DNA of 64,000 nt. It comes from Candidatus Flemingiibacterium sp. (GTDB taxonomy: Bacteria > Bacillota > Clostridia > Oscillospirales > CAG-272). Under the pieces are notes generated by a model that worked only from the letters and a program-made list of their open reading frames with translations, was not told where the DNA came from and did no database searches. The stretch lies in contig JAZNKS010000073.1 in assembly GCA_045578725.1 (NCBI GenBank), positions 12,902 through 76,901 on the forward strand, given 5' to 3'. The translations under genes were made by a program, and so were the position numbers. This document shows positions 47,468-58,499 of the stretch, piece by piece; position 1 is the stretch's first letter; each line of letters opens with the position of its first letter.

Positions 47468-49669
47468 TTATTCGGCCTTGAAGTGCCAGATCCGGCTCTC
47501 GCCATCCGTCCAGCTTCCGGTCAGATTCAGGCCGGCGTTCATCAGAAGCGCGCCCGAATATTTCCGGCCGCTTGCCGTATCGGTGTAGATCTTCTCCGGA
47601 TCCAGACCGCGCAGGCGGATATAGCGGGATACATGAACCTGCGTGCGCATAACCACATAGGTCAGCAGAACCTCGTTCTTATCCAGCGATACCGATTCCC
47701 ATGCGGCGGCAGATGTAATCTTCGCCTTATCCTCGGTCGGATTGATCAGGCGATAGTAATCACCGTTCTGGATCACATCGTAATACTTATGATAAGCGGC
47801 AACCTGCTCGCGGACCAGGGCACGCTCTTCATCGTTCATCTTCGTCAGATCCAGCTCGTAGCCGAAGGCACCGGCCAAAGCTACCTCGCCGCGGGTCTTG
47901 AAGCTGGTGACTCGTCCGGTCTGATGGTTCGGAACCGCCGAAACATGGGCGCTCATGGCCGAGGGCGGATAAACCATCGTTGTGCCGTACTGGATTTCCA
48001 GCCGCTCCATGGCATCCGTATCGTCCGATGTCCAGATCTGCGGGCTGTAATAGAGCATACCGGGATCAAAACGTCCGCCGCCGCCCGAGCATCCCTCCAG
48101 AAGCAGGTGCGGGAATTCGGTCAGCAGGCGCTCCAGAAGCTCATACACGCCGAGAATGTACCGGTGTGCAACCTCCTTCTGACGGCCCGCAGGGAGCAGA
48201 TCGCTTCCCACCTCGGTCAGATTGCGGTTGAAGTCCCACTTCACATATTCGATATTGGCGCTCGAAAGGATCGCCTTCATCTGCTCAAAGATATTGTCGC
48301 GGACATCCTTTCTCGACATATCCAGCACATACTGCTGGCGGCCAATCGAGCGGTCACGGCCGTTGACATGGAGGCACCAGTCGGGATGCGCGCGGTAAAG
48401 ATCGCTGTCAGGCGATACCATCTCCGGCTCAAACCAGATGCCGAACTTCACGCCCAGCGCGTTGACGCGCTCGACCAGCTTGCCAAGGCCTCCTTTGATC
48501 TTATCCTCGTTGACATACCAATCGCCCAGCGAGCAGTTGTCAATGTTGCGCACACCGAACCAGCCATCGTCCATGACCAGCATTTCGATGCCGAGATCGG
48601 CCGCATCCTTTGCAATCGCAACCAGCTTGTCATCGTCGAAATCGAAATAGGTGGCCTCCCAGTTATTGACGATAATCGGGCGCTTCTTTGTTTTCCATTC
48701 GCCGCGGCAGAGATTGTAGCGGTAGAGCTTATGGAAGGTGCGGCTCATGGTGCCTACACCGGCTCCCGAATAGACCATGACCGCCTCGGGTGCTGTGAAG
48801 CTTTCACCGGGCTCCAGATGCCAGCCGAAATCCTCGGGATTGATGCCCATCAGAAGACGGGTGGTGCGCATACAATCCACTTCGGTTTCCACCGCAAAAT
48901 TGCTGGAATAGATCAGCGAGAAGCCGTAGACCTCACCGCTTTCCTCGGTATAACCGTCGCGTGCCAGCGCCGCAAAAGGATTGTTGTTGTGGCTGGAGGA
49001 ACCGCGCTTGGAATGAATGCCCTGCAGACCGAATTCCAGATGACGGCTGACCAGCGTGCGTTCCTTGGCCCAGCGGCCCTGCAGATGGAGAAGCGTGAAA
49101 TCGCTGTCGGTGAAATCAACAGCTGTGGAATGAATCCGCTCGATGTCGAAGGGCTTGTCGGAGGTGTTCGTCACGCGAACACTGCGGGTGATCGCATCCA
49201 GGGTCCTGAAGGCGGTGTAGACAAGAACCACCTCGGCGCCGGTCAGCGAATCGGTGCAGACGATCTCCAGCGTATCGGCCTCCTCGTCGGAGGCATAGGT
49301 TGCGGGCAGGCCTTCCAGCTTCGGCTTGCCTGCATAGATTTTGTGGGATTTGTAACGGATATCGGTTGCCGAGCTTCCGTTGGCGCCGCGGATCGACAGA
49401 GCCGACACGCGGAAATCACCGGCACCGTTGGCGGGATATTCCAGCGCCGCGGTATCCAGCGACAGACCGTTCTCCTCCGGCGCGGGGACACTGGCGCTGA
49501 AGGAAGCATTGTTCAGCCGCATCCGAAGATAATCAAGATCGGTATCCGGCACATAGGCACCGTAATAGAGATGCAAAAGGAATCCGGTCGGGCTGATCTC
49601 CATCACATAGCTGGAGGAGGGTGTATCCAGCTTGAAGACACGAAGCCCGGAATCGTACAGAATCGACAT
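47468..49669 (-). CDS. Alpha-galactosidase (GH36)
   Basis: NNWEATYFDF, DDGWFG, GIWFEPEM, YVKWDFNR, CSGGGGRFD and WTSDDTD motifs. Confidence 0.95.
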   Translation of the reverse strand: MSILYDSGLRVFKLDTPSSSYVMEISPTGFLLHLYYGAYVPDTDLDYLRMRLNNASFSASVPAPEENGLSLDTAALEYPANGAGDFRVSALSIRGANGSSATDIRYKSHKIYAGKPKLEGLPATYASDEEADTLEIVCTDSLTGAEVVLVYTAFRTLDAITRSVRVTNTSDKPFDIERIHSTAVDFTDSDFTLLHLQGRWAKERTLVSRHLEFGLQGIHSKRGSSSHNNNPFAALARDGYTEESGEVYGFSLIYSSNFAVETEVDCMRTTRLLMGINPEDFGWHLEPGESFTAPEAVMVYSGAGVGTMSRTFHKLYRYNLCRGEWKTKKRPIIVNNWEATYFDFDDDKLVAIAKDAADLGIEMLVMDDGWFGVRNIDNCSLGDWYVNEDKIKGGLGKLVERVNALGVKFGIWFEPEMVSPDSDLYRAHPDWCLHVNGRDRSIGRQQYVLDMSRKDVRDNIFEQMKAILSSANIEYVKWDFNRNLTEVGSDLLPAGRQKEVAHRYILGVYELLERLLTEFPHLLLEGCSGGGGRFDPGMLYYSPQIWTSDDTDAMERLEIQYGTTMVYPPSAMSAHVSAVPNHQTGRVTSFKTRGEVALAGAFGYELDLTKMNDEERALVREQVAAYHKYYDVIQNGDYYRLINPTEDKAKITSAAAWESVSLDKNEVLLTYVVMRTQVHVSRYIRLRGLDPEKIYTDTASGRKYSGALLMNAGLNLTGSWTDGESRIWHFKAE

Positions 49670-49713
49670 AATACATTCATCCTTTCCTGGAATCGGAATC
49701 ATTTGACTCTTTC

Positions 49714-49811: not shown

Positions 49812-49840
49812 TTGATTTCGTCATAAAATACTGGTATAAT
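49812..49840 (+). promoter_or_regulatory. SigA promoter of the S8 pair
   Basis: TTGATT-17-TATAAT with extended -10 TG. Confidence 0.7.
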
Positions 49841-49890
49841 AGTAGAAGAAATCAATTTCTGCGAATTTCATGAAAGAAACGGAGTCCGAT

Positions 49891-52800
49891 ATGAAAGCGC
49901 TCATCGCCTCCCTCCTCCTGCCGGCCCTTCTCTGCCCGCCGGCCGTCGTTAATGTGAATCATCCGAATCCCGTCGAGGTGATTGTCGAGGTCGAACCGTC
50001 CGGTGAAGCCTGTCTGCCCCTGCTGGCCGGACAGCTGCCCGATGCCGGAATCGGCTACTGCTACGACCTTCTGCTCGACGGCATTCAGCTGACCCTTCCC
50101 GCCTCCCAGCTCTGGAAGCTGGAAGCCCTCTCCTTTGTCAGAGAGGTCTATCCCTGCGCCGAATACGAAAGCACCGCTGTCCAATCGGAAGTCTTCGATG
50201 CCTCCGCTTATCAAAGCGCGGCCGGGATGCTCGGCATAGATAACACGGAGCTTGACGGCTCCGGCATCACCGTTGCCATTCTCGATACCGGCTTTGACAT
50301 CACGCATCCGGCCTTTGCTGTGCCGGTCGGTCCGTTTTCGGAATCGCTCACCTTTGAGGGGCTGAAGGCTCATCTCGGAAGCCGGCTTCTGAAGGCATCC
50401 CATGCCGGCATTCTTTCGGCCGACGATCTTTATCACAGCGCGCAGATTCCGTTCTGCTTCGATTATCACGGACAGGATCCCGATCTGTCCGGGGCCTCCG
50501 TACACGGGACCCATGTGGCCGGCATCATCGGTGCCAATAAAACCGCCGACAGCGATTTTTCCGGCATCGCGCCGGGCTGTCAGCTTCTTCTGATGAAGGT
50601 CTTTGACGATGCCGGAAGCGCGGCCACCGACAGCGCCATCATCGCCGCCATCGAGGATGCCATCCGTCTGGGCGCCGACATCATCAATCTCAGCCTCGGT
50701 GACTATGCAGGCTCGGCCGATCCCGGTCAGAATATCAGCCTTTCCGCCGTAATCGAGCGTGCCCGCCAATCGGGCGTGCTGATCGTCTGCTCCGCCGGCA
50801 ACGAAAGCACCTCCTCCGCCGCCAGCCGTCTGGCCGGCGAAGGAATCCCTCTCCCGCCTGCCGATTACACCGATTACGGCACGATCAGCTATCCCGCCTC
50901 CGCCGATTATACGGTTGCCGCCGCATCGGCCGACAATATTTTTTCCTATCAGCTCCATTTCTTCGCCGCCGATCCGTCCCGCCCGATTGCTTACACCGAT
51001 ACCAATAAGGCCTCCGGCGTGCTGGAAAGCTCCTTTGCCGATCATTTTCACGGACGTACACTTGAATATGCTGTGATTCCCGGCATCGGTGAGGACGGGG
51101 ATTATAACGGAATCCAGGCTGACGGCAAGCTGGTTCTTGTAAACCGTGGAACGATTCCCTTCACCGAAAAAGCCGTCGCCGCCGCCGCGCACGGTGCCGT
51201 CGGCATGATTGTTTCTGACAACACCGACGATCCGCTCCTGAATATGGAGCTGACCGGCTCGCCCATCCCCGCAATCTTCATTTCCCGTGAGGACGGTCTG
51301 GCGCTTGCCGATGCCGCCTTGAGGCAGGTCACCTTCCGACGGGAATACAGCGTTCTTTCCAACACCGATACCGCCGGCCAGATTTCCGCCTTTTCTTCCT
51401 TTGGCCCGACTCCGTCCCTGACCCTGAAGCCGGACATCACCGCCATCGGCGGCCATGTCTGGAGTACGGTCAGCGGCGGATATGCAAGCGCTTCCGGAAC
51501 CTCCATGGCCGCCCCGCAAATTTCGGCCGCCGCCGCGCTGCTTCTGCAGGATCTCAGCCTCCGGGGAGAGATCACCGATCCGTCCCTGCGTGCCGAACAG
51601 CTTCGCATCCGGCTCATGAATGCCGCCGTTCCGATCCTGCAGGACAACGGTATTGAATATTCTCCCCGCGCGCAGGGAGCCGGCCTTCTGAATCTTGCCT
51701 CGGCGCAAAAAGATCTCCCCCGGTTGATTCACACGCCTGACAAAAAGCCAAAGGCCGAGCTGTATGACCGGCTTGGTGACAGCTTTTCGCTGTCGGTCAC
51801 ACTCCAGAATCCCACCGGCGAGCCGATGGAAACCGCACTCGGCGTTTCCCTTCTCCATGATGGCTGGCAGATGCTTACGCTCGCCGACGGAAGCAAGCGT
51901 ATCTTCGCTTCGCTGATCAGCGGAGCCGATAAGGGTGCCGTGATCCGTGCCGCCGGCTCCGGGCTGAATCTCAACCGGAACGCCGCTGATTATTCGCCGC
52001 TGTCCGTCACGCTGGCACCGGGCGAAGAAACGATTATTGAGCTGATCGTCACGCCGGATCCGGCCCTGACAAAGGAGCTGGAAGCGGTATTTCCGAACGG
52101 CTTTTATCGGGAGGGCTTTGTCTACTGCGAAACGGCCGGGCAAAGCGTGTCCCTGCCCTTTATGGGCTATGCGGGCAGATGGGATGCCGCGCCGATTCTG
52201 GACGGCAGCCTGTATGAGGATGAATTCACGCTGTTCGGAGGCATCAAGTGGGTCCTGCCGGTGAACGGTATGCTGACCCCGGCCGGTCAGACGGCTGACG
52301 GCGATCTGGATGCCGAGCTTATCGCCTTTTCTCCGAACGGGGACGGCAATGCCGATGAGCTGTATCTGATTCCCAATCTTCTGCGCAATGCGGAAAACGG
52401 AACGATCACCGTAACGGACAGCAGCGGCCGGATTGTCTGCCGGGAAGATATCGCCGCCGATTATCTGACCAAGAGCGCGGGCATGGATGCCGTTCTCCGG
52501 CTCCCCATCTTCTGGGGCGGAAGCGACGGCTTATACTGGCGCTATATTCTTCCCGACGGCCGGTATACGATCGCCGTCTCGCTGACACCGGATTATCCCG
52601 GAGCCGCTCCGCAGGTCCTCACCTTCCCCCTTCTTCTGGATACCGAAAAACCGGTCATCCGGGATATGGACTTTGATCCTGCCACCCGCCGTCTGACGCT
52701 CACGCTCCGGGATAATGCAGGCCTTTTGCAGGCGGTTCTGAAGGAAAATCAGCATCCGGACAGCTTCACAGCGACCGCTCTCTGCGATCCGTCCGATCCG

Positions 52801-52923
52801 GATACCGCCGTCACCTTCGATCTTTCCGGCTTTGAGGGAGATGTCCTCTACTGTGAACTGACCGATCTCGCCCGGAACACGCAGATTCTGCGGCTTGTAC
52901 TGTCAAAGGAGGAATTCCGGTAA
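49891..52923 (+). CDS. S8 subtilase of lactocepin/C5a-peptidase type (I9-like propeptide, PA, Fn3-like and FlgD-Ig-like domains); alternative start 49870
   Basis: Intact triad AILDTG / HGTHVAG / SGTSMAAP and oxyanion SAGN; PA domain GKLVLVNRG..FTEK; FPNG...EGFV; FSPNGDG. Confidence 0.9.
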   Translation: MKALIASLLLPALLCPPAVVNVNHPNPVEVIVEVEPSGEACLPLLAGQLPDAGIGYCYDLLLDGIQLTLPASQLWKLEALSFVREVYPCAEYESTAVQSEVFDASAYQSAAGMLGIDNTELDGSGITVAILDTGFDITHPAFAVPVGPFSESLTFEGLKAHLGSRLLKASHAGILSADDLYHSAQIPFCFDYHGQDPDLSGASVHGTHVAGIIGANKTADSDFSGIAPGCQLLLMKVFDDAGSAATDSAIIAAIEDAIRLGADIINLSLGDYAGSADPGQNISLSAVIERARQSGVLIVCSAGNESTSSAASRLAGEGIPLPPADYTDYGTISYPASADYTVAAASADNIFSYQLHFFAADPSRPIAYTDTNKASGVLESSFADHFHGRTLEYAVIPGIGEDGDYNGIQADGKLVLVNRGTIPFTEKAVAAAAHGAVGMIVSDNTDDPLLNMELTGSPIPAIFISREDGLALADAALRQVTFRREYSVLSNTDTAGQISAFSSFGPTPSLTLKPDITAIGGHVWSTVSGGYASASGTSMAAPQISAAAALLLQDLSLRGEITDPSLRAEQLRIRLMNAAVPILQDNGIEYSPRAQGAGLLNLASAQKDLPRLIHTPDKKPKAELYDRLGDSFSLSVTLQNPTGEPMETALGVSLLHDGWQMLTLADGSKRIFASLISGADKGAVIRAAGSGLNLNRNAADYSPLSVTLAPGEETIIELIVTPDPALTKELEAVFPNGFYREGFVYCETAGQSVSLPFMGYAGRWDAAPILDGSLYEDEFTLFGGIKWVLPVNGMLTPAGQTADGDLDAELIAFSPNGDGNADELYLIPNLLRNAENGTITVTDSSGRIVCREDIAADYLTKSAGMDAVLRLPIFWGGSDGLYWRYILPDGRYTIAVSLTPDYPGAAPQVLTFPLLLDTEKPVIRDMDFDPATRRLTLTLRDNAGLLQAVLKENQHPDSFTATALCDPSDPDTAVTFDLSGFEGDVLYCELTDLARNTQILRLVLSKEEFR

Positions 52924-55775
52924 TGAACGGCATCAAAAAGCTTCTCTGCTTTGCGCTGGCCCTTCTCATGCTCCCCATTCTGCCAAGCTATGCCGGCTTT
53001 GAGGGTTTCGCTCCCCCGGCAGACTATAACGGCGAAGGAATGTGCATCGCCATTCTGGATACGGGCTTTGATCTGACCCACGAAACCTTTGGCATGAGCG
53101 CCGATTCCGTCAAAATCACAAAGGAGCAGCTGCGCGCCGCCCTGCCGGAGCTGAATGCCCAGGCGGATGACGGTGCGTGGTTCAGCGAAAAAATCCCCTT
53201 TGCCTACAACTATGCCGCGATGAGCACCGATGTATCCGAAAACCCCGAGCGCGGCACCTACCTTTTGTCGGCGGCCGCCGGGAACACATCCGGCCGTGCC
53301 CCCGGCATCGCTCCCGGAGCGCAGGTTCTTGCCATGAAAATCTGTGATTCCTCGATGACGCTGGATGAGGAGATTCTGATTCTCGCCATGAAAGATGCCG
53401 CCCGCCTCGGCGCCGATGTCATCCTGCTCCCGGCTTATGAAGCCTGCGGTTTTGCCGCTGATCCGGCATCTGCTTTCTGCCGGACCGTGACCCGGCTTTG
53501 CGAGTCCGGCATCCTCGTGCTCTCCTCGGCCGGTGATACCGGCGATCCCGGTACCTCCACCGTTTATTCCCGGACGGTCGGCCTGACCGGCATGACCTCG
53601 GATCAACCGGACGGCGGCTCGATCTCTTATCCGGGCTCTTTTCCCGCTGTTTTCACAGCCGGAAGTACCGATACCAACCTTTACAGCACCAACTGCCTGC
53701 TTCTCGGCGATGCCATAATCCCATACAGCGATTCCAATGCGATGTTCGACATTCCCCCCGAGCCGCTTCCATTTGCGGATCGCTTTGAGGGGATGACCCT
53801 TTCCTATGAAGTCATCGACGGCATCGGAAAACCGGAGGATTTTCTCCGGGACGGCAAGGCTCCCGATCTTACGGGTAAGCTGGCGATGATCCCGCGCGGA
53901 GAACTGACCTTCACCGAAAAGGCATCGAATGCCGCCGCGCTCGGTGCCATCGGTGTGATTATTGTGGACAATCAGAAGAATCCCGAAGCCTCGCTCACGC
54001 TGTCCATGGATCTGACCGACTCGCCGATCCCGGCTATTCTGGTATCCGAGGCGGACGGTAAAAAGCTGACCGAAGCGGCCGTTAAGAGAATCACCGTTGA
54101 CAGCTCGCTCCGGTATACCCTGCTTCTTCAGCCGACTCCGTCGCCGTCCGCCTTCACCTCTGTCGGACCCGCGCCCGATCTCACGCTGAAACCGGATGTA
54201 TCCGTAATCGGAAGCAATGTGGAATGCGCCGCTCCTGATCAGTCCTATGCCGCTGTCACCTCCACCGATATAGCCGCGGCCCGTCTTGCCGGAATCGCCG
54301 CCTGTACAAAGCAGCGGCTTCTGGCGGAGGGCGATTCCTCCGACCCGGCCATTCTGGCCGGACGGGTGCGCGCACTGATTGCTTCCTCGGCACAGCTCAT
54401 GCTGAACGCAGACGGGAAAATCCCCTATTCGCCCCGGATTCAGGGCGGCGGTGCGGCCGATCTGTCCCGGGCGCTGGATGCCGGTCTGCTGGTCACGCTG
54501 GACAAAACATCCCTCGGTGAAATCGACGGTTCGGATCTTACGCTGACCGTCACCGTCGAGAATCTGGAGCCTGTATCCAAGACCTGTACGCTCGATGCCA
54601 TCCTCGGCTCGGATGGCTATGATACCTTCACCTACGAAATTCTCAGCGATATTGAGAGCGGCGATCAGACAATCGGTGAAATGCTCGGCAAGGCACCGTC
54701 CGATACCGTGCACTTTACTACCGGCTTCGAGCCCTTCAAAAAGGCCCGGATCATGGTCGGCGACTGCTTTTTGCAGCTGAATGCGATGGCCGACGATGCC
54801 GAGCCGTATACTTTCACGCTCAAGCCCTACAGCCGCAATACCGTCCGCATAAGTGTGGTTTTAGATTCCCAAACGCAGGCCGAATACCGGAAGGCATTCC
54901 CAAACGGCTTTTTCATCGAAGGCTTCGTCCGCGTGCGGACCGATGAGGCGGATGGCCCGGAGGAGGCCTCGGTCCCTTTCCTCGGCTTTGATGGCGATTG
55001 GAGCACCGCGCCCGCGCTGGAAACTGAGATTTATTCGGGACTTGCCCCGATCCGCGACAGCATCTACCTCTGGCGGAGCATTCTGGACCCGCGCTTTGGC
55101 GGAATACTTCTGCCCGGCCAGAATCCGTTTGCGGATCCCAGGGCGCCCGATTACCGGCCCGATGCTGCCCGCCTTACCTTCTCGCCGACCGCCGATGCAA
55201 AAAATGCATCCGTCTGGCTGAATCTCGGTCTTCTGCGCAGTTTGCGCGATCTGACGGTTTCCGTATATTCACCGGATGGAGAAGTGATTCTCCGCCGTGA
55301 AATCGGCCCGGCTATCCGGACCTATCCCGGAACCTACGGCTATGTCAGCCCGAGGATCGAATTATGGGACGGACGCTCCCCGGAACTCACATCCTACGTT
55401 TATCCCGACGGCAGTTATACCGTGGAGATCGCCTTTACCAAAGCCGCCGATCCGGAAGGCCTCCGCGAGTCAAGAAGCTGGGAGCTGATTCTTGATGGCA
55501 CGCCGCCCGTTCTCGTCGCACATTCCTTCACCGATACCGGGGATAAGAAAATGCTCTCGCTGACCACATCGGACACGAACGGGACTGCGTATATCTTTTT
55601 AAGTGACAGCAATTACGATTCGCCCGAGGAAGCAGGCATCTTTGGAGAGGACGGCACCGTGCTCTTCGATGTCAGCACCCTGACCGGCGATTACATCTAT
55701 GCGGAGATTTACGATGCCGCTATGAATTGCACGGTAGAACGGTTGGCTAATCCGTTTGCCCGCCCCGCCGGCTGA
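52923..55775 (+). CDS. S8 subtilase paralog, predicted catalytically inactive (pseudoprotease)
   Basis: Signal peptide ending SYA; AILDTG kept; HGT->RGT, SAGN->SAGD, GTSMA->STDIA; no propeptide; same downstream domains as the upstream gene. Confidence 0.85.
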   Translation: MNGIKKLLCFALALLMLPILPSYAGFEGFAPPADYNGEGMCIAILDTGFDLTHETFGMSADSVKITKEQLRAALPELNAQADDGAWFSEKIPFAYNYAAMSTDVSENPERGTYLLSAAAGNTSGRAPGIAPGAQVLAMKICDSSMTLDEEILILAMKDAARLGADVILLPAYEACGFAADPASAFCRTVTRLCESGILVLSSAGDTGDPGTSTVYSRTVGLTGMTSDQPDGGSISYPGSFPAVFTAGSTDTNLYSTNCLLLGDAIIPYSDSNAMFDIPPEPLPFADRFEGMTLSYEVIDGIGKPEDFLRDGKAPDLTGKLAMIPRGELTFTEKASNAAALGAIGVIIVDNQKNPEASLTLSMDLTDSPIPAILVSEADGKKLTEAAVKRITVDSSLRYTLLLQPTPSPSAFTSVGPAPDLTLKPDVSVIGSNVECAAPDQSYAAVTSTDIAAARLAGIAACTKQRLLAEGDSSDPAILAGRVRALIASSAQLMLNADGKIPYSPRIQGGGAADLSRALDAGLLVTLDKTSLGEIDGSDLTLTVTVENLEPVSKTCTLDAILGSDGYDTFTYEILSDIESGDQTIGEMLGKAPSDTVHFTTGFEPFKKARIMVGDCFLQLNAMADDAEPYTFTLKPYSRNTVRISVVLDSQTQAEYRKAFPNGFFIEGFVRVRTDEADGPEEASVPFLGFDGDWSTAPALETEIYSGLAPIRDSIYLWRSILDPRFGGILLPGQNPFADPRAPDYRPDAARLTFSPTADAKNASVWLNLGLLRSLRDLTVSVYSPDGEVILRREIGPAIRTYPGTYGYVSPRIELWDGRSPELTSYVYPDGSYTVEIAFTKAADPEGLRESRSWELILDGTPPVLVAHSFTDTGDKKMLSLTTSDTNGTAYIFLSDSNYDSPEEAGIFGEDGTVLFDVSTLTGDYIYAEIYDAAMNCTVERLANPFARPAG

Positions 55776-56853
55776 TCGCCTCCTGCTCCCGCCTTACCGA
55801 CAGCGCAAGAGAAAGGCAGACCGGCAGCAGAATCAGGCCGACCAGCCCGAACAGACGGCTTCCGATCACCATGGCCATCAGCGCCAGCAGGGGATGAAGC
55901 CCCATCTGCCGGCCGACAATCCGCGGCTCGAGGATATTGCGCACCACGCTGATAATCCCCCAGAGCACCAGAAGTCCGATTCCGAGCGGATAATCCGCAT
56001 ACAGAAACGAAAGAAGCGCCCAGGGGATCAGGATACCGCCGGTTCCGAGCACCGGAAGAAAATCGAACAGCGCAATGCCAAGCGCGGCCCAGAGCGGGGA
56101 ACTGACACCGAGGATCACCAGTCCCAGCGCCAGCTCCCCGTAAGTGATCAGCGCCAGCAGGGCATAGGAGCGCAGACAGCGTGCCGCTGTGACAAATCCC
56201 ATATTCCGAATCCGTTTCAGAAAAGCGACTGCCTTATCCGGCAGCCGCTTTTTGATGGCGGCCAGAATCTCCTCAAAATCCAGCGTGATGAAAAAGCTGG
56301 CCAGTACCGCAATCAGGCCCTCGATCAGAATCCGCGGGATACCGGCCGCAGCCGCCGAAAGTCGGGTCAGCACCTGCACGGACAGCTCCGACACCGCATT
56401 GCCAAGCGATGTCTTCAGCGAATCGATATAGCTCTGCAGGGCATCAAAGAATTCTCCCTCCGCGCCCATACCGAAAAAGCTCCGGACCCGATCAAGGAAG
56501 CGCTGAACCGTATCAATCAGCCATGTCAGCGTCGGCTCTACACCCGTCTGATAGATTTGGGGCAGATCCGCCATGAAATTCCCGACCAGTACGCCGAGCC
56601 GCACAACGGCAATACTCACCAGCATTCCGATGGTAGCGTAAAAAAGCAGCAAAAGGAGGATCGCCGTCGGCCGGCGGCGCAGACGGAATCGCCCCAGAAG
56701 CCAGCGCACAACCGGATTGATCAGCGATGCAGCCGCAAAGCCGATCAGAAAGGGCATCACCACAAAGATAGCATATTTGAAAAACAGATACACCATTCCG
56801 GCAATCAGAAGATACCAGACGGTGCTGACAATAAATCGAAGTTTTTTCTCCAT
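55747..56853 (-). CDS. ytvI: Sporulation integral membrane protein YtvI (AI-2E family)
   Basis: PFLIGF..A.LI.P, D.LPVLGTG.ILIPW and EPRIVG..MGLHPL motifs. Confidence 0.88.
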   Translation of the reverse strand: MEKKLRFIVSTVWYLLIAGMVYLFFKYAIFVVMPFLIGFAAASLINPVVRWLLGRFRLRRRPTAILLLLLFYATIGMLVSIAVVRLGVLVGNFMADLPQIYQTGVEPTLTWLIDTVQRFLDRVRSFFGMGAEGEFFDALQSYIDSLKTSLGNAVSELSVQVLTRLSAAAAGIPRILIEGLIAVLASFFITLDFEEILAAIKKRLPDKAVAFLKRIRNMGFVTAARCLRSYALLALITYGELALGLVILGVSSPLWAALGIALFDFLPVLGTGGILIPWALLSFLYADYPLGIGLLVLWGIISVVRNILEPRIVGRQMGLHPLLALMAMVIGSRLFGLVGLILLPVCLSLALSVRREQEAISRRGGQTD

Positions 56854-56869
56854 GACAGCCTCCTTTTTC

Positions 56870-56898
56870 ATAGTATGACCGGCCGGCTTTCCCGCTAT
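56870..56898 (-). promoter_or_regulatory. Putative SigE promoter of ytvI
   Basis: ATA-18-CATACTAT on the minus strand just upstream of AAGGAGG. Confidence 0.55.
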
Positions 56899-57035
56899 AA
56901 CAAAAATCACGTCCTCTTCACACAGCCTTCAATCAGCACCCACATACTTTTGATACTATATATATGTATCCATCGCATCAATCATCCCGGAACCGACGAC
57001 CACGACGGAATTCCGGTCAGAAAGGAAAACGCATC

Positions 57036-58499
57036 ATGTCCAAGGGATCACGAACCCGCGCAGATAACGCGGAAAAGAACCGCCTGAAAAAAGAAAAAGA
57101 GGCCTTTGAGGCCACCAAGAAAAAGGTCCGCCGCGTAACGGCGATCATCACCGGCTCCCTGCTCGCTCTTATGATTCTCATCACCCTCATCGGCACGATC
57201 GTCTATCAGATCCGGATGAACGGCGGCGAATATCTCCGCACCGAAATTGCGGCCTCCTCCGGCGATCTTGATGTCAACGGCTCGATGATGAATTATTACT
57301 TCAATGATGTTTATAACACCTTTGTGGATTATTACGGCAGTTATGTTTCCTATTACGGTCTGGATCCAACCCTCTCGCTGAAGCAGCAGCAGATTTCCGA
57401 GGGCCAGACCTGGTTCTCCTACTTCATGTCCGGCGCACAGGAAACCGTCAGCAGCATTCTCCTGCTCAACCGGATGGCGGAAGCGGATGGCATTTCGCTC
57501 ACCGAAGCGGAAATTGCAGCCATCACCAACCGAGCAAAGGGAATGGATACCGGCTTATATGGCCGCGGTGTCAATACAAAGGATATCACCGATGCCAAGC
57601 TGCTGGAAGGGCTGGCCTACAAATATCAGTTCGCCAGACAGGCCGGCCTTCAGCCGACCCTCGCCGAGATGGAGGAGCATTACAAGGCCAACACCGATGC
57701 TTACCTTCTGGTGGATTATATCTGCTACGATATGACCTATTCCGATAAAGGTCCGACCCGCGAGGAAATCAGTGCCATCGCCGATACGCTGGCAAAAGCG
57801 CCGACCCCCGATGCCTTCCGCAAGGCCATTGAAGACAAGCTGCGTGCCGACGATCCGGTCATCAGTCGGGAGGATATCGATTATATCCTCGATTCGGTCA
57901 CCTTTGAGGGCGCTTACTTTGCCGAAGAGGACGAATTCAGCGAATGGGCCTTCAAGGAGGCAAAGGTCGGCGATACAAAGATCATCGAGGATCCTGACAA
58001 ATCCGTCTTCTATGTCTATATGATTACAAAAGCGCCCTACCGCGATGAGGCGAGCACCGTGAATGTGCGGCACATTCTCCTCACCCAAGCCTCTGCCGGA
58101 AGCGACAGCAAGGCTAAAAAGCTCGCCGAGAAGCTTCTGGCCGAATTTGAAGCCGGTGATAAGAGCGAGGAAGCCTTCGGACTTCTCGCGCTGGAATATT
58201 CGGATGATACCGGCTCCTATTACAACGGCGGTCTGTATGAAAATGTCGGCGAGGGCGATATGGTCACCGCCTTCAACGATTGGTGCTTCGATCCGTCCCG
58301 CAAGGAGGGCGATACCGGCATCGTGGAAACGGATTACGGCTATCATGTCATGCTCTTCTGCGGCGAGGGACAGAAGGTCTGGGAGTCGCTGGCCTCCTAT
58401 GCGCTGATCAACGAGAAAATGGCCGAGCTGATGGAGGAGAACAGCCCCCTCTATCCTGTCACGTTCGATGATACGGTACTCAAAATGATTCCCGGCTGA
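57036..58499 (+). CDS. Membrane-anchored parvulin-type peptidyl-prolyl isomerase (PrsA/SurA-like)
   Basis: Basic N-terminus plus TM; VNVRHIL, F..LA.EYSDD, GGL, MV..F..W.F and ET.YGYH motifs. Confidence 0.85.
   Translation: MSKGSRTRADNAEKNRLKKEKEAFEATKKKVRRVTAIITGSLLALMILITLIGTIVYQIRMNGGEYLRTEIAASSGDLDVNGSMMNYYFNDVYNTFVDYYGSYVSYYGLDPTLSLKQQQISEGQTWFSYFMSGAQETVSSILLLNRMAEADGISLTEAEIAAITNRAKGMDTGLYGRGVNTKDITDAKLLEGLAYKYQFARQAGLQPTLAEMEEHYKANTDAYLLVDYICYDMTYSDKGPTREEISAIADTLAKAPTPDAFRKAIEDKLRADDPVISREDIDYILDSVTFEGAYFAEEDEFSEWAFKEAKVGDTKIIEDPDKSVFYVYMITKAPYRDEASTVNVRHILLTQASAGSDSKAKKLAEKLLAEFEAGDKSEEAFGLLALEYSDDTGSYYNGGLYENVGEGDMVTAFNDWCFDPSRKEGDTGIVETDYGYHVMLFCGEGQKVWESLASYALINEKMAELMEENSPLYPVTFDDTVLKMIPG

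Follow-up and report, generated by a model that had tools for sequence, protein, structure and literature searches.

A secreted subtilase and its conserved pseudoprotease paralog in Candidatus Flemingiibacterium

Two long open reading frames on the forward strand occupy positions 49870-55775 of a 64,000-nucleotide stretch of contig JAZNKS010000073.1 from Candidatus Flemingiibacterium sp., the whole of which we refer to as the window. Both encode secreted members of the S8 (subtilase) peptidase family. The upstream gene, A, resembles a conventional protease of the C5a-peptidase/cell-envelope proteinase (CEP) type, and the downstream gene, B, encodes a paralog in which the residues at the catalytic His, oxyanion Asn and catalytic Ser positions have been replaced. 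Aligned over 941 columns, the two proteins share 32% identity (E 7e-103), and their genes are the only S8 genes found in the 3.33 Mb, 95% complete genome. Comparison with related genomes indicates that B is very probably dead as an enzyme and nevertheless maintained as a protein.

Layout of the locus and anatomy of the two proteins

The features of gene A and of the junction with gene B are as follows, with residue numbers of A counted from the ATG at 49870:

49812..49840, + strand: promoter-like TTGATT-17-TATAAT with TG extension, 5' of A (10/12 in a consensus scan, which is not proof of function)
49891..52923, + strand: gene A, secreted C5a-peptidase/CEP-type S8 subtilase with signal peptide, pro-region of ~95 residues, catalytic domain with PA insert, and Fn3-like C-terminus
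50284..50286, + strand: codon of catalytic Asp139 in A (AILDTG), by alignment
50503..50505, + strand: codon of catalytic His212 in A (HGTHVAG), by alignment
50800..50802, + strand: codon of oxyanion Asn311 in A (SAGN), by alignment
51502..51504, + strand: codon of catalytic Ser545 in A (GTSMAAP), by alignment
52906..52925, + strand: TAATG overlap of stop and start codons (52921-52925) behind the ribosome-binding site AAGGAGG (52906-52912), coupling B to A

A first, sequence-only reading of this DNA had proposed that the two genes share a single promoter and overlap at TAATG. The overlap holds, and the single promoter is consistent with a consensus scan. The TAA of A overlaps the ATG of B behind a strong ribosome-binding site, and the consensus scan that picked out the promoter-like box before A found no comparable site directly upstream of B. 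The ATG at 49891 that this reading used for A is favoured by a GGAG 7 nucleotides upstream, making it likelier than the in-frame alternative at 49870. Between the predicted -10 box and the two start codons lies an imperfect inverted repeat (AATTTC..GAATTT, 49852-49867), which could be a candidate operator.

Protein A scores 177.8 bits against Peptidase_S8 (PF00082; gathering cut-off 21.8), its PA domain also passes the Pfam threshold, and the complete Asp/His/Ser triad and oxyanion Asn described earlier were located as D139, H212, N311, and S545. This combination of Pfam score and canonical residues places it among the S8 peptidases. Its best sequence matches among solved structures are of the ScpA/ScpB and SpyCEP type (E 1e-65). 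With a signal peptide, a pro-region, and Asp, His, Asn, and Ser all in place, A has the sequence of a conventional zymogen and is predicted to be the active protease of the pair.

The features of gene B show how it departs from this pattern:

52923..55775, + strand: gene B, secreted pseudoprotease paralog of 950 residues, without pro-region
52923..52994, + strand: Sec-type signal peptide (MNGIKK...PSYA), recognised by eye; model confidence below 50 at residues 1-32
53058..53060, + strand: Asp46, catalytic-Asp position kept (AILDTG), by alignment to A
53250..53252, + strand: Arg110 at the catalytic His column, by alignment to A
53535..53537, + strand: Asp205 at the oxyanion Asn column, by alignment to A
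53841..54068, + strand: PA domain, residues 307-382 (Pfam), with conservation equal to that in A
54267..54269, + strand: Asp449 at the catalytic Ser column, by alignment to A
54510..55772, + strand: Fn3-like/beta-sandwich C-terminal domains, residues 530-950, by fold match and model

B is a member of the S8 fold by Pfam (Peptidase_S8, 74.2 bits against the same cut-off; PA also passes) yet fails the test of an active peptidase, the Asp/His/Ser triad plus oxyanion Asn, at R110, D205, and D449, exactly where the earlier reading had placed the substitutions. By its sequence B would be classed as a non-peptidase homologue of S8. The signal peptide, AILDTG, PA domain, KPD, and YSPR.QG motifs that had been listed are all present over the 950 residues, the last as YSPRIQGGG. 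The Fn3-like region that had been read from the sequence is backed by a fold match to C5a peptidases and not by Pfam, where fn3_5 remains under the cut-off (22.3 against 27.6 bits). An AlphaFold2 model of B built from 39 aligned sequences has a mean predicted local distance difference test score (pLDDT) of 88.2 and a predicted template modelling (TM) score of 0.86, with pLDDT under 50 only at residues 1-32. Searched at full length with Foldseek, it matches ScpB best (8bty, E 3.8e-66, TM 0.63), followed by ScpA (3eif, E 1.4e-65), with TM values for ScpB and ScpA of 0.62-0.64 and a match to SpyCEP as well; the best sequence matches among solved structures are likewise of the ScpA/ScpB and SpyCEP type (E about 1e-48 to 5e-50). 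With full-length structure and sequence searches agreeing on these proteins, B is seen to retain all five domains of a C5a-peptidase/CEP-type scaffold intact, around an active site that is dead. The architecture of catalytic domain, PA insert, and Fn3-like domains is thus seen in B by model and in A by sequence only.

Neither protein carries the LPXTG or SLH anchor of the CEP type, in agreement with the initial observation: no LPXTG-like C-terminal motif or C-terminal hydrophobic segment was found in A or B, and Pfam detected no SLH domain in either. More distant relatives of 1200-1650 residues do possess SLH domains. Also among the structural relatives of the scaffold is Vpr, a PA-containing S8 peptidase solved as a fibril (PDB 8jmw; Z 40.7 over 485 residues). 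Self-assembly is therefore on record for a scaffold of this kind, which by analogy might bear on association of A and B.

The other difference between the two proteins lies in the pro-region. A has ~95 extra residues between its signal peptide and catalytic domain, whereas in B the signal peptide directly abuts the catalytic domain, as had been noted. The pro-region is kept in all full-length A orthologues of the genus. Its earlier description as I9-like is less secure than its existence: Inhibitor_I9 (PF05922) gives no Pfam match in this segment even at E<=1, and what similarity there is comes from a B-type orthologue, P0003, whose pro-region matches weakly (31% identity across 52 residues; E 0.002 in a single comparison). 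The pro-region of a B-type orthologue likewise matched no Pfam family at E<=1. In the P0003 model (pLDDT 88.4) the pro-region has the order beta-alpha-beta-beta-alpha-beta, and VIA-align superposes the model from residue 25-28 onward on unprocessed pro-subtilisin E and pro-Tk-subtilisin (Z about 34, root-mean-square deviation 2.2-2.6 Å, 334-343 residues), while mature subtilisins align only from ~residue 100. The same model matches SpyCEP and ScpA with Z of 41-43. The pro-subtilisin fold of the P0003 pro-region suggests, as far as the model goes, that the B lineage started with a classical pro-peptide and that the B of the window lost it. Of the B orthologues, only those of G016, G023, and G012 have a pro-region-like segment, and each of them retains the catalytic Ser; two of the three are sisters, and the association thus represents about two independent lineages. 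In another genome, G024 (L053), the B orthologue has a long acidic tandem repeat of TETDGI-like units in place of the pro-region, and the A orthologue has an extended acidic insert too.

Conservation, recurrent loss of catalytic residues, and selection

B served as query against the genomes of 24 other species of the genus. Both genes are present in 23 of them, with one A-type and one B-type open reading frame each by BLAST; neither was found in G022, a 90% complete genome. A always lies upstream of B, on the same contig in 21 genomes and on separate contigs in two fragmented assemblies. The distance from the stop of A to the start of B is -4 to +66 nucleotides in the 20 genomes of the genus where it could be measured, a value of -37 in G019 becoming -4 if the second Met is used. 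The frames of the 23 B orthologues and the window's copy contain no internal stops (21 are complete and two are cut by contig ends), and 21 of the 22 full-length B orthologues have a signal peptide. The exception is G011 (L041), where the frame is open and no signal peptide or plausible start was found; a frameshift, an assembly error, or real loss of export could account for this. In a quick IQ-TREE search of 48 sequences from the genus under LG+G4, A and B each form one clade (SH-aLRT 100) and their branching is mirrored.

Within this conserved tandem the active site of B has been lost repeatedly. A is canonical at each position seen in all 24 genomes, including one fragment without its N-terminal half. 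The corresponding columns in B are as follows:

Asp column: kept in 20/23; Gly in 3
His column: kept in 17/23; Ser in 4, Arg in 1, Asn in 1
Asn column: kept in 6/24; Asp in 11, Ser in 4, Glu in 3
Ser column: kept in 6/24; Thr in 8, Ala in 4, Arg in 3, Glu in 2, Asp in 1

The minimum number of changes between kept and lost states on the 48-sequence tree is six for Ser, three for His, four for Asn, and three for Asp. The sequence-only reading had looked to relatives for the same tandem with the same triad loss; the tandem is there in 23 of 24 species, and the loss is not identical, with the residues of B varying from species to species. It had also counted an intact triad in close relatives against a pseudoprotease. 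Such relatives exist in part, as all four residues are retained in three of 23 B orthologues (G006, G016, and G023) and not in the other 20. These three read as the retained ancestral state of a lineage that loses the site repeatedly, and not as evidence against the pseudoenzyme status of the window's B.

Loss in B extends beyond the four residues. Where a column held sufficient data, conservation was shared by A and B at 77 positions and confined to B at 36, and 58 positions that are invariant in A are lost in B. The lost positions cluster at the His helix (A215-222), at the SLG strand that binds the substrate backbone (A273-282), around the oxyanion residue, and at the Ser helix (A543-550), and the losses of the His-helix, SLG, and Ser-helix motifs reach even the three B proteins with an intact tetrad. 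Averaged over alignment columns of the genus, identity is 0.49 in A and 0.43 in B. Relative to A, B falls short most at residues 161-240 and 441-480, which are active-site segments, and conservation of the PA domain and of parts of the C-terminal domains equals that in A.

To measure selection on B, the ratio of non-synonymous to synonymous substitution rates (dN/dS) was calculated per species pair by the NG86 method. Only G007/G017 and G003/G015 are trustworthy, with dS saturated in most other pairs, including the window's B and its nearest orthologue, where at 46% identity dN/dS is unusable. Residue strings below give the Asp, His, Asn, and Ser columns in that order.

G007/G017: dS 0.35-0.39; dN/dS of A 0.166, of B 0.142; B is D/S/S/R in both
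G003/G015: dS about 0.5-0.8; dN/dS of A 0.11-0.16, of B 0.21-0.31
G014/G018: dS above 1, saturating; dN/dS of A 0.10, of B 0.12

Because D/S/S/R is found in both G007 and G017 and also in their sister G009, the loss of the site predates the G007/G017 split, and the dN/dS of 0.142 for B, well off 1 and close to the 0.166 for A, describes a copy that was already dead. Domain by domain the value is 0.09-0.18 throughout, the dead catalytic domain included. Strain-level data agree in direction. Parts of the operon are covered, patchily, at 90-99% identity by contigs from four metagenome runs on gut or faecal samples; of 96 variants 40 were listed, and the 31 of these that lie in B comprise 19 synonymous and 12 non-synonymous ones, giving a rough pN/pS of ~0.2 if one quarter of sites are synonymous, from low-depth contigs over one part of B. 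A variant at 50508 was excluded because it falls in the conserved His motif, where contigs of other organisms accumulate and hang loose to either side. No RNA dataset was among the matches listed for the operon; those were gut/faecal metagenome DNA contigs only, with at most 0.21 of sampled words.

The observations and the pseudoenzyme status of B are solid. Because dead copies are under purifying selection and conservation falls mainly at active-site segments, B as a selectively maintained pseudoprotease is well supported. The earlier preference for a maintained non-catalytic paralog over random decay is thus borne out by a full-length B beside A in 23 of 24 species, by a dN/dS of 0.14 after the loss, and by relaxation concentrated at the active site.

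The genes around the pair provide a measure of its rate of change. On the 5' side is a divergent GH36 alpha-galactosidase gene (47468-49702, - strand), and on the 3' side a convergent gene for an AI-2E-family transporter (55747-56910, - strand), the 3' end of which overlaps that of B by 29 nucleotides. In the genus, orthologues of B are 34-45% identical to the window's protein by BLASTP and those of A 39-48%; the neighbours are 76-85% identical for GH36 (9 loci), 44-54% for AI-2E (21 loci), and 42-58% for a peptidyl-prolyl isomerase (18 loci). Because A and B are only 34-48% identical where the GH36 neighbour is 76-85% identical, both subtilases appear from their sequences to be fast-evolving exported proteins. 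No near relative of the window's B turned up among 5.8 billion clustered proteins, the best being 45% identical.

The isomerase gene, near the A-B pair at 56964-58499 on the + strand, encodes a 511-residue PPIC-type protein with an N-terminal membrane anchor. Across the genus, the AI-2E transporter gene lies beside A-B in 21 of 23 genomes and the isomerase gene in 18 of 23; in the clade of G002, G005, G011, and G019 the pair is flipped relative to these genes and still adjoins them. By analogy with the lactococcal PrtP-PrtM system, one might guess at a PrsA/PrtM-like maturation role for the isomerase.

Family history and comparison with known systems

Beyond the genus, we sampled 97 genera of the family with 151 genomes, among them that of the window, and 45 of these genomes gave matches at E<=1e-20. 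We examined 20 loci with two matches, of which 17 were complete adjacent pairs. Their upstream genes are all canonical (HGTHVA ... GTSMAxP). Among the downstream genes of these pairs from other genera, 12 retain the full set of four residues, with derived motifs such as HGTAM. and GTSxxxA without Pro, and five are degenerate (G090, D/H/E/G; G091, E/T/E/R; G108, D/E/D/R; G173, D/L/D/Y; G182, S/Q/N/G). Three more partial or non-adjacent copies are degenerate too. Among 70 titled loci from species-representative genomes, every single long CEP is canonical (~1000-2400 residues; bacilli, clostridia, Lactobacillus delbrueckii, and others), and tandem pairs of ~1000 residues occur only in Clostridia, Oscillospiraceae, and Eubacteriales metagenome-assembled genomes, adding two further downstream genes with D/H/D/D.

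A FastTree phylogeny rooted with 12 long CEPs, with support values that are less reliable than those of a full search, puts B together with 17 downstream genes and three upstream genes in one clade (44 rows, SH-like 98), within which the clade of the window's B is sister to the intact-tetrad downstream genes of G064 and G153 (support 92). Within this lineage, degeneration has also arisen independently outside the window's genus. In G173 (L072) and G091 (L073) the canonical upstream gene is placed within the downstream-type clade, grouping with the G062 downstream gene (support 100); these pairs may stem from another round of duplication or from an A-type gene that was replaced. Because of these placements, the history of the tandem is not one clean duplication.

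The closest solved structures to A and B, those of ScpA/ScpB and SpyCEP, share with them the catalytic domain, PA insert, and Fn3-like domains. A and B differ from these proteins in having no LPXTG anchor and in an identity of only ~21-26%, B differs further in the loss of His, Asn, and Ser, and here an active and an inactive copy stand in tandem in an uncultured gut commensal lineage. The best NCBIfam match for both proteins is the SGO_0316/SGO_0317 family of oral streptococci (NF040553), which also consists of tandem CEP-type paralogs; membership was rejected, with scores of 222.9 and 172.1 bits against a cut-off of 1400 and no LPXTG.

A precedent for the pairing itself had been seen in the clostridial Csp proteins, which are co-encoded subtilase paralogs of which one is active and the others have degenerate triads, are retained, and function. 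They act inside spores, are not known to carry Sec signals, and differ in triad state between species. Csp proteins keep their pro-region bound, unlike most B orthologues, which lost theirs. They are also smaller, at ~550 residues without PA or Fn3 domains, whereas the proteins of the window are larger and exported. The precedent therefore stands as an analogy and not as membership: against the Csp models NF040808 and NF040809, A scores 40.9 and 49.1 bits and B 24.2 bits, with cut-offs of 675 and 1250. Passages of PMC12880746 describe the pseudoproteases CspC and CspA as a signalling heterodimer beside active CspB, and Csp pseudoproteases are portrayed there and in parts of PMC7200643 as working through protein-protein contacts. 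More distant parallels, in logic only, are the trypanosome AdoMetDC prozyme and the companions of plant SCPL acyltransferases, which have unrelated folds and are intracellular or from plants; both are presented, in portions of PMC5201418 and PMC9541279, as dead paralogs kept for working with an active copy. A literature search that did not extend to subscription journals found no pseudoprotease of the CEP/C5a-peptidase type and no such pairing, only papers on Csp, malaria, and pseudoenzymes in general. By this comparison the logic of a Csp-like pairing is known, and what would be new is the secreted, anchorless C5a-peptidase-type scaffold.

Possible roles of B beside A

The explanation that best accounts for these data, to which we assign a probability of roughly 55%, is an operon of an active A and a selected, non-catalytic B that acts in concert with A. 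In this model, A and B would be expressed from one operon as two exported S8 proteins of the C5a-peptidase/CEP branch. B would trace to an ancient tandem duplication. Its ancestor would have been another protease with a pro-region, and in this family the second gene would have been repeatedly dispensable as an enzyme and not as a protein. In the window's B this course has clearly run to its end: His, Asn, Ser, the SLG strand, and the pro-region are gone, and selection keeps the five-domain scaffold. Because the active site is lost yet the scaffold is kept, we infer that B has a non-catalytic function, most likely one of binding by way of the PA and Fn3-like domains, with which relatives bind partners remote from the active site, and in concert with the co-translated A. 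With the two genes so tightly coupled and always found together, a shared function is the best guess, and that B is functionally tied to A seems slightly favoured. The same operon coupling and co-inheritance are the whole of what points to a stable physical A:B complex, against which the odds lie somewhat.

Two modes of action rank highest. B could be a subunit that binds substrates or surfaces and brings targets to A, or it could bind the released pro-peptide of A and so tune A activation. Pro-peptides can act in trans, and plant SBT3 dimerises through its PA domain. The broadest form of the proposal, a secreted protease:pseudoprotease two-component system, widespread in an uncultured family of gut Clostridia, in which B was converted many times independently, shedding its pro-region in the process, and now controls A by pro-peptide capture or substrate delivery, is tentative and would not be our first expectation.

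Several results weigh against a partnership of this kind. The ancestral second gene was probably a second protease and not a partner, because three orthologues in the genus keep all four residues and 12 of 17 downstream genes from other genera are apparently intact. The mirrored trees and the joint absence from G022 are weak evidence, because adjacent genes are inherited and lost together regardless of interaction. Mature A and B are both strongly acidic, with isoelectric points of about 4.3-4.6 in all 22 pairs, and no charge complementarity between them was found across these pairs. The canonical substrate-binding strand is not conserved in B, and the loss of this SLG strand argues against a simple substrate trap or a classically bound pro-peptide. 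The higher dN/dS of B than of A in G003/G015 belongs here as well.

The main rival is that B is an independent secreted binder, such as an adhesin, a lectin-like protein, or a nutrient-capture protein, which shares a promoter with A through tandem duplication only. We consider this possible, though less likely than not. Streptococcal C5a peptidase has non-proteolytic adhesin roles. An independent binder would be consistent with the scaffold, PA, and C-terminal domains being conserved as in A, with the 36 positions conserved in B only, and with the lack of charge complementarity, but it leaves unexplained the tight translational coupling kept genus-wide and the fact that B never occurs without A in 23 genomes of the genus; an adhesin would also normally need an anchor, and neither protein has a recognisable one. 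Ligand binding at exosites far from the active site is on record for members of this fold: passages of PMC9464890 describe an Fn2 exosite in ScpA as a binding site distant from the active site, and parts of PMC10624844 give a KM of 55 nM for CXCL8 with a C-terminal fragment of SpyCEP that binds it.

Residual catalysis by B, whether proteolysis or another hydrolysis, through shifted or other residues such as Thr448 or acidic residues of the cleft, is improbable. Some nominal pseudoenzymes have migrated catalytic residues, according to portions of PMC10211241, and the oxyanion column holds Asp or Glu in 14 of 24 B proteins and the Ser column Thr in 8 of 24. However, the replacements vary by species (T/A/R/E/D at the Ser column; R/N/S at the His column) with no alternative site conserved, the motifs of the His helix, SLG strand, and Ser helix are lost, and the window's B has no catalytic His. 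Least probable of all, and very unlikely, is a functionless relic that is decaying and not yet interrupted. B does change faster than A, both in column identity (0.43 against 0.49) and in the G003/G015 dN/dS (0.21-0.31 against 0.11-0.16), but its frame is free of internal stops in the window's copy and in 23 orthologues that are 34-45% identical to it, dN/dS is 0.14 after loss of the site, signal peptides are kept, and strain variants show a synonymous excess. A decaying pseudogene is contradicted by these conservation data.

Pseudoenzymes are usually met as finished products. Here a single genus displays the path, with B proteins that lack from none to all four of the catalytic residues, some of the intact ones still bearing a pro-region, and a fully dead B, in G007/G017, is as constrained as its active neighbour. 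Comparison within the genus can thus address what use a large secreted subtilase scaffold has after catalysis is lost. All such genes are annotated 'S8 family serine peptidase', and protease counts from gut metagenomes consequently include members that are unable to cleave. If the proposed concerted action of A and B is true, it would extend the protease/pseudoprotease pairing of clostridial spore germination to extracellular proteolysis in gut commensals, and if B controls A as in the broadest form of the proposal, it would be the first regulatory pseudoenzyme of this kind in the C5a-peptidase/CEP fold, accompanied by a natural series of intermediates.

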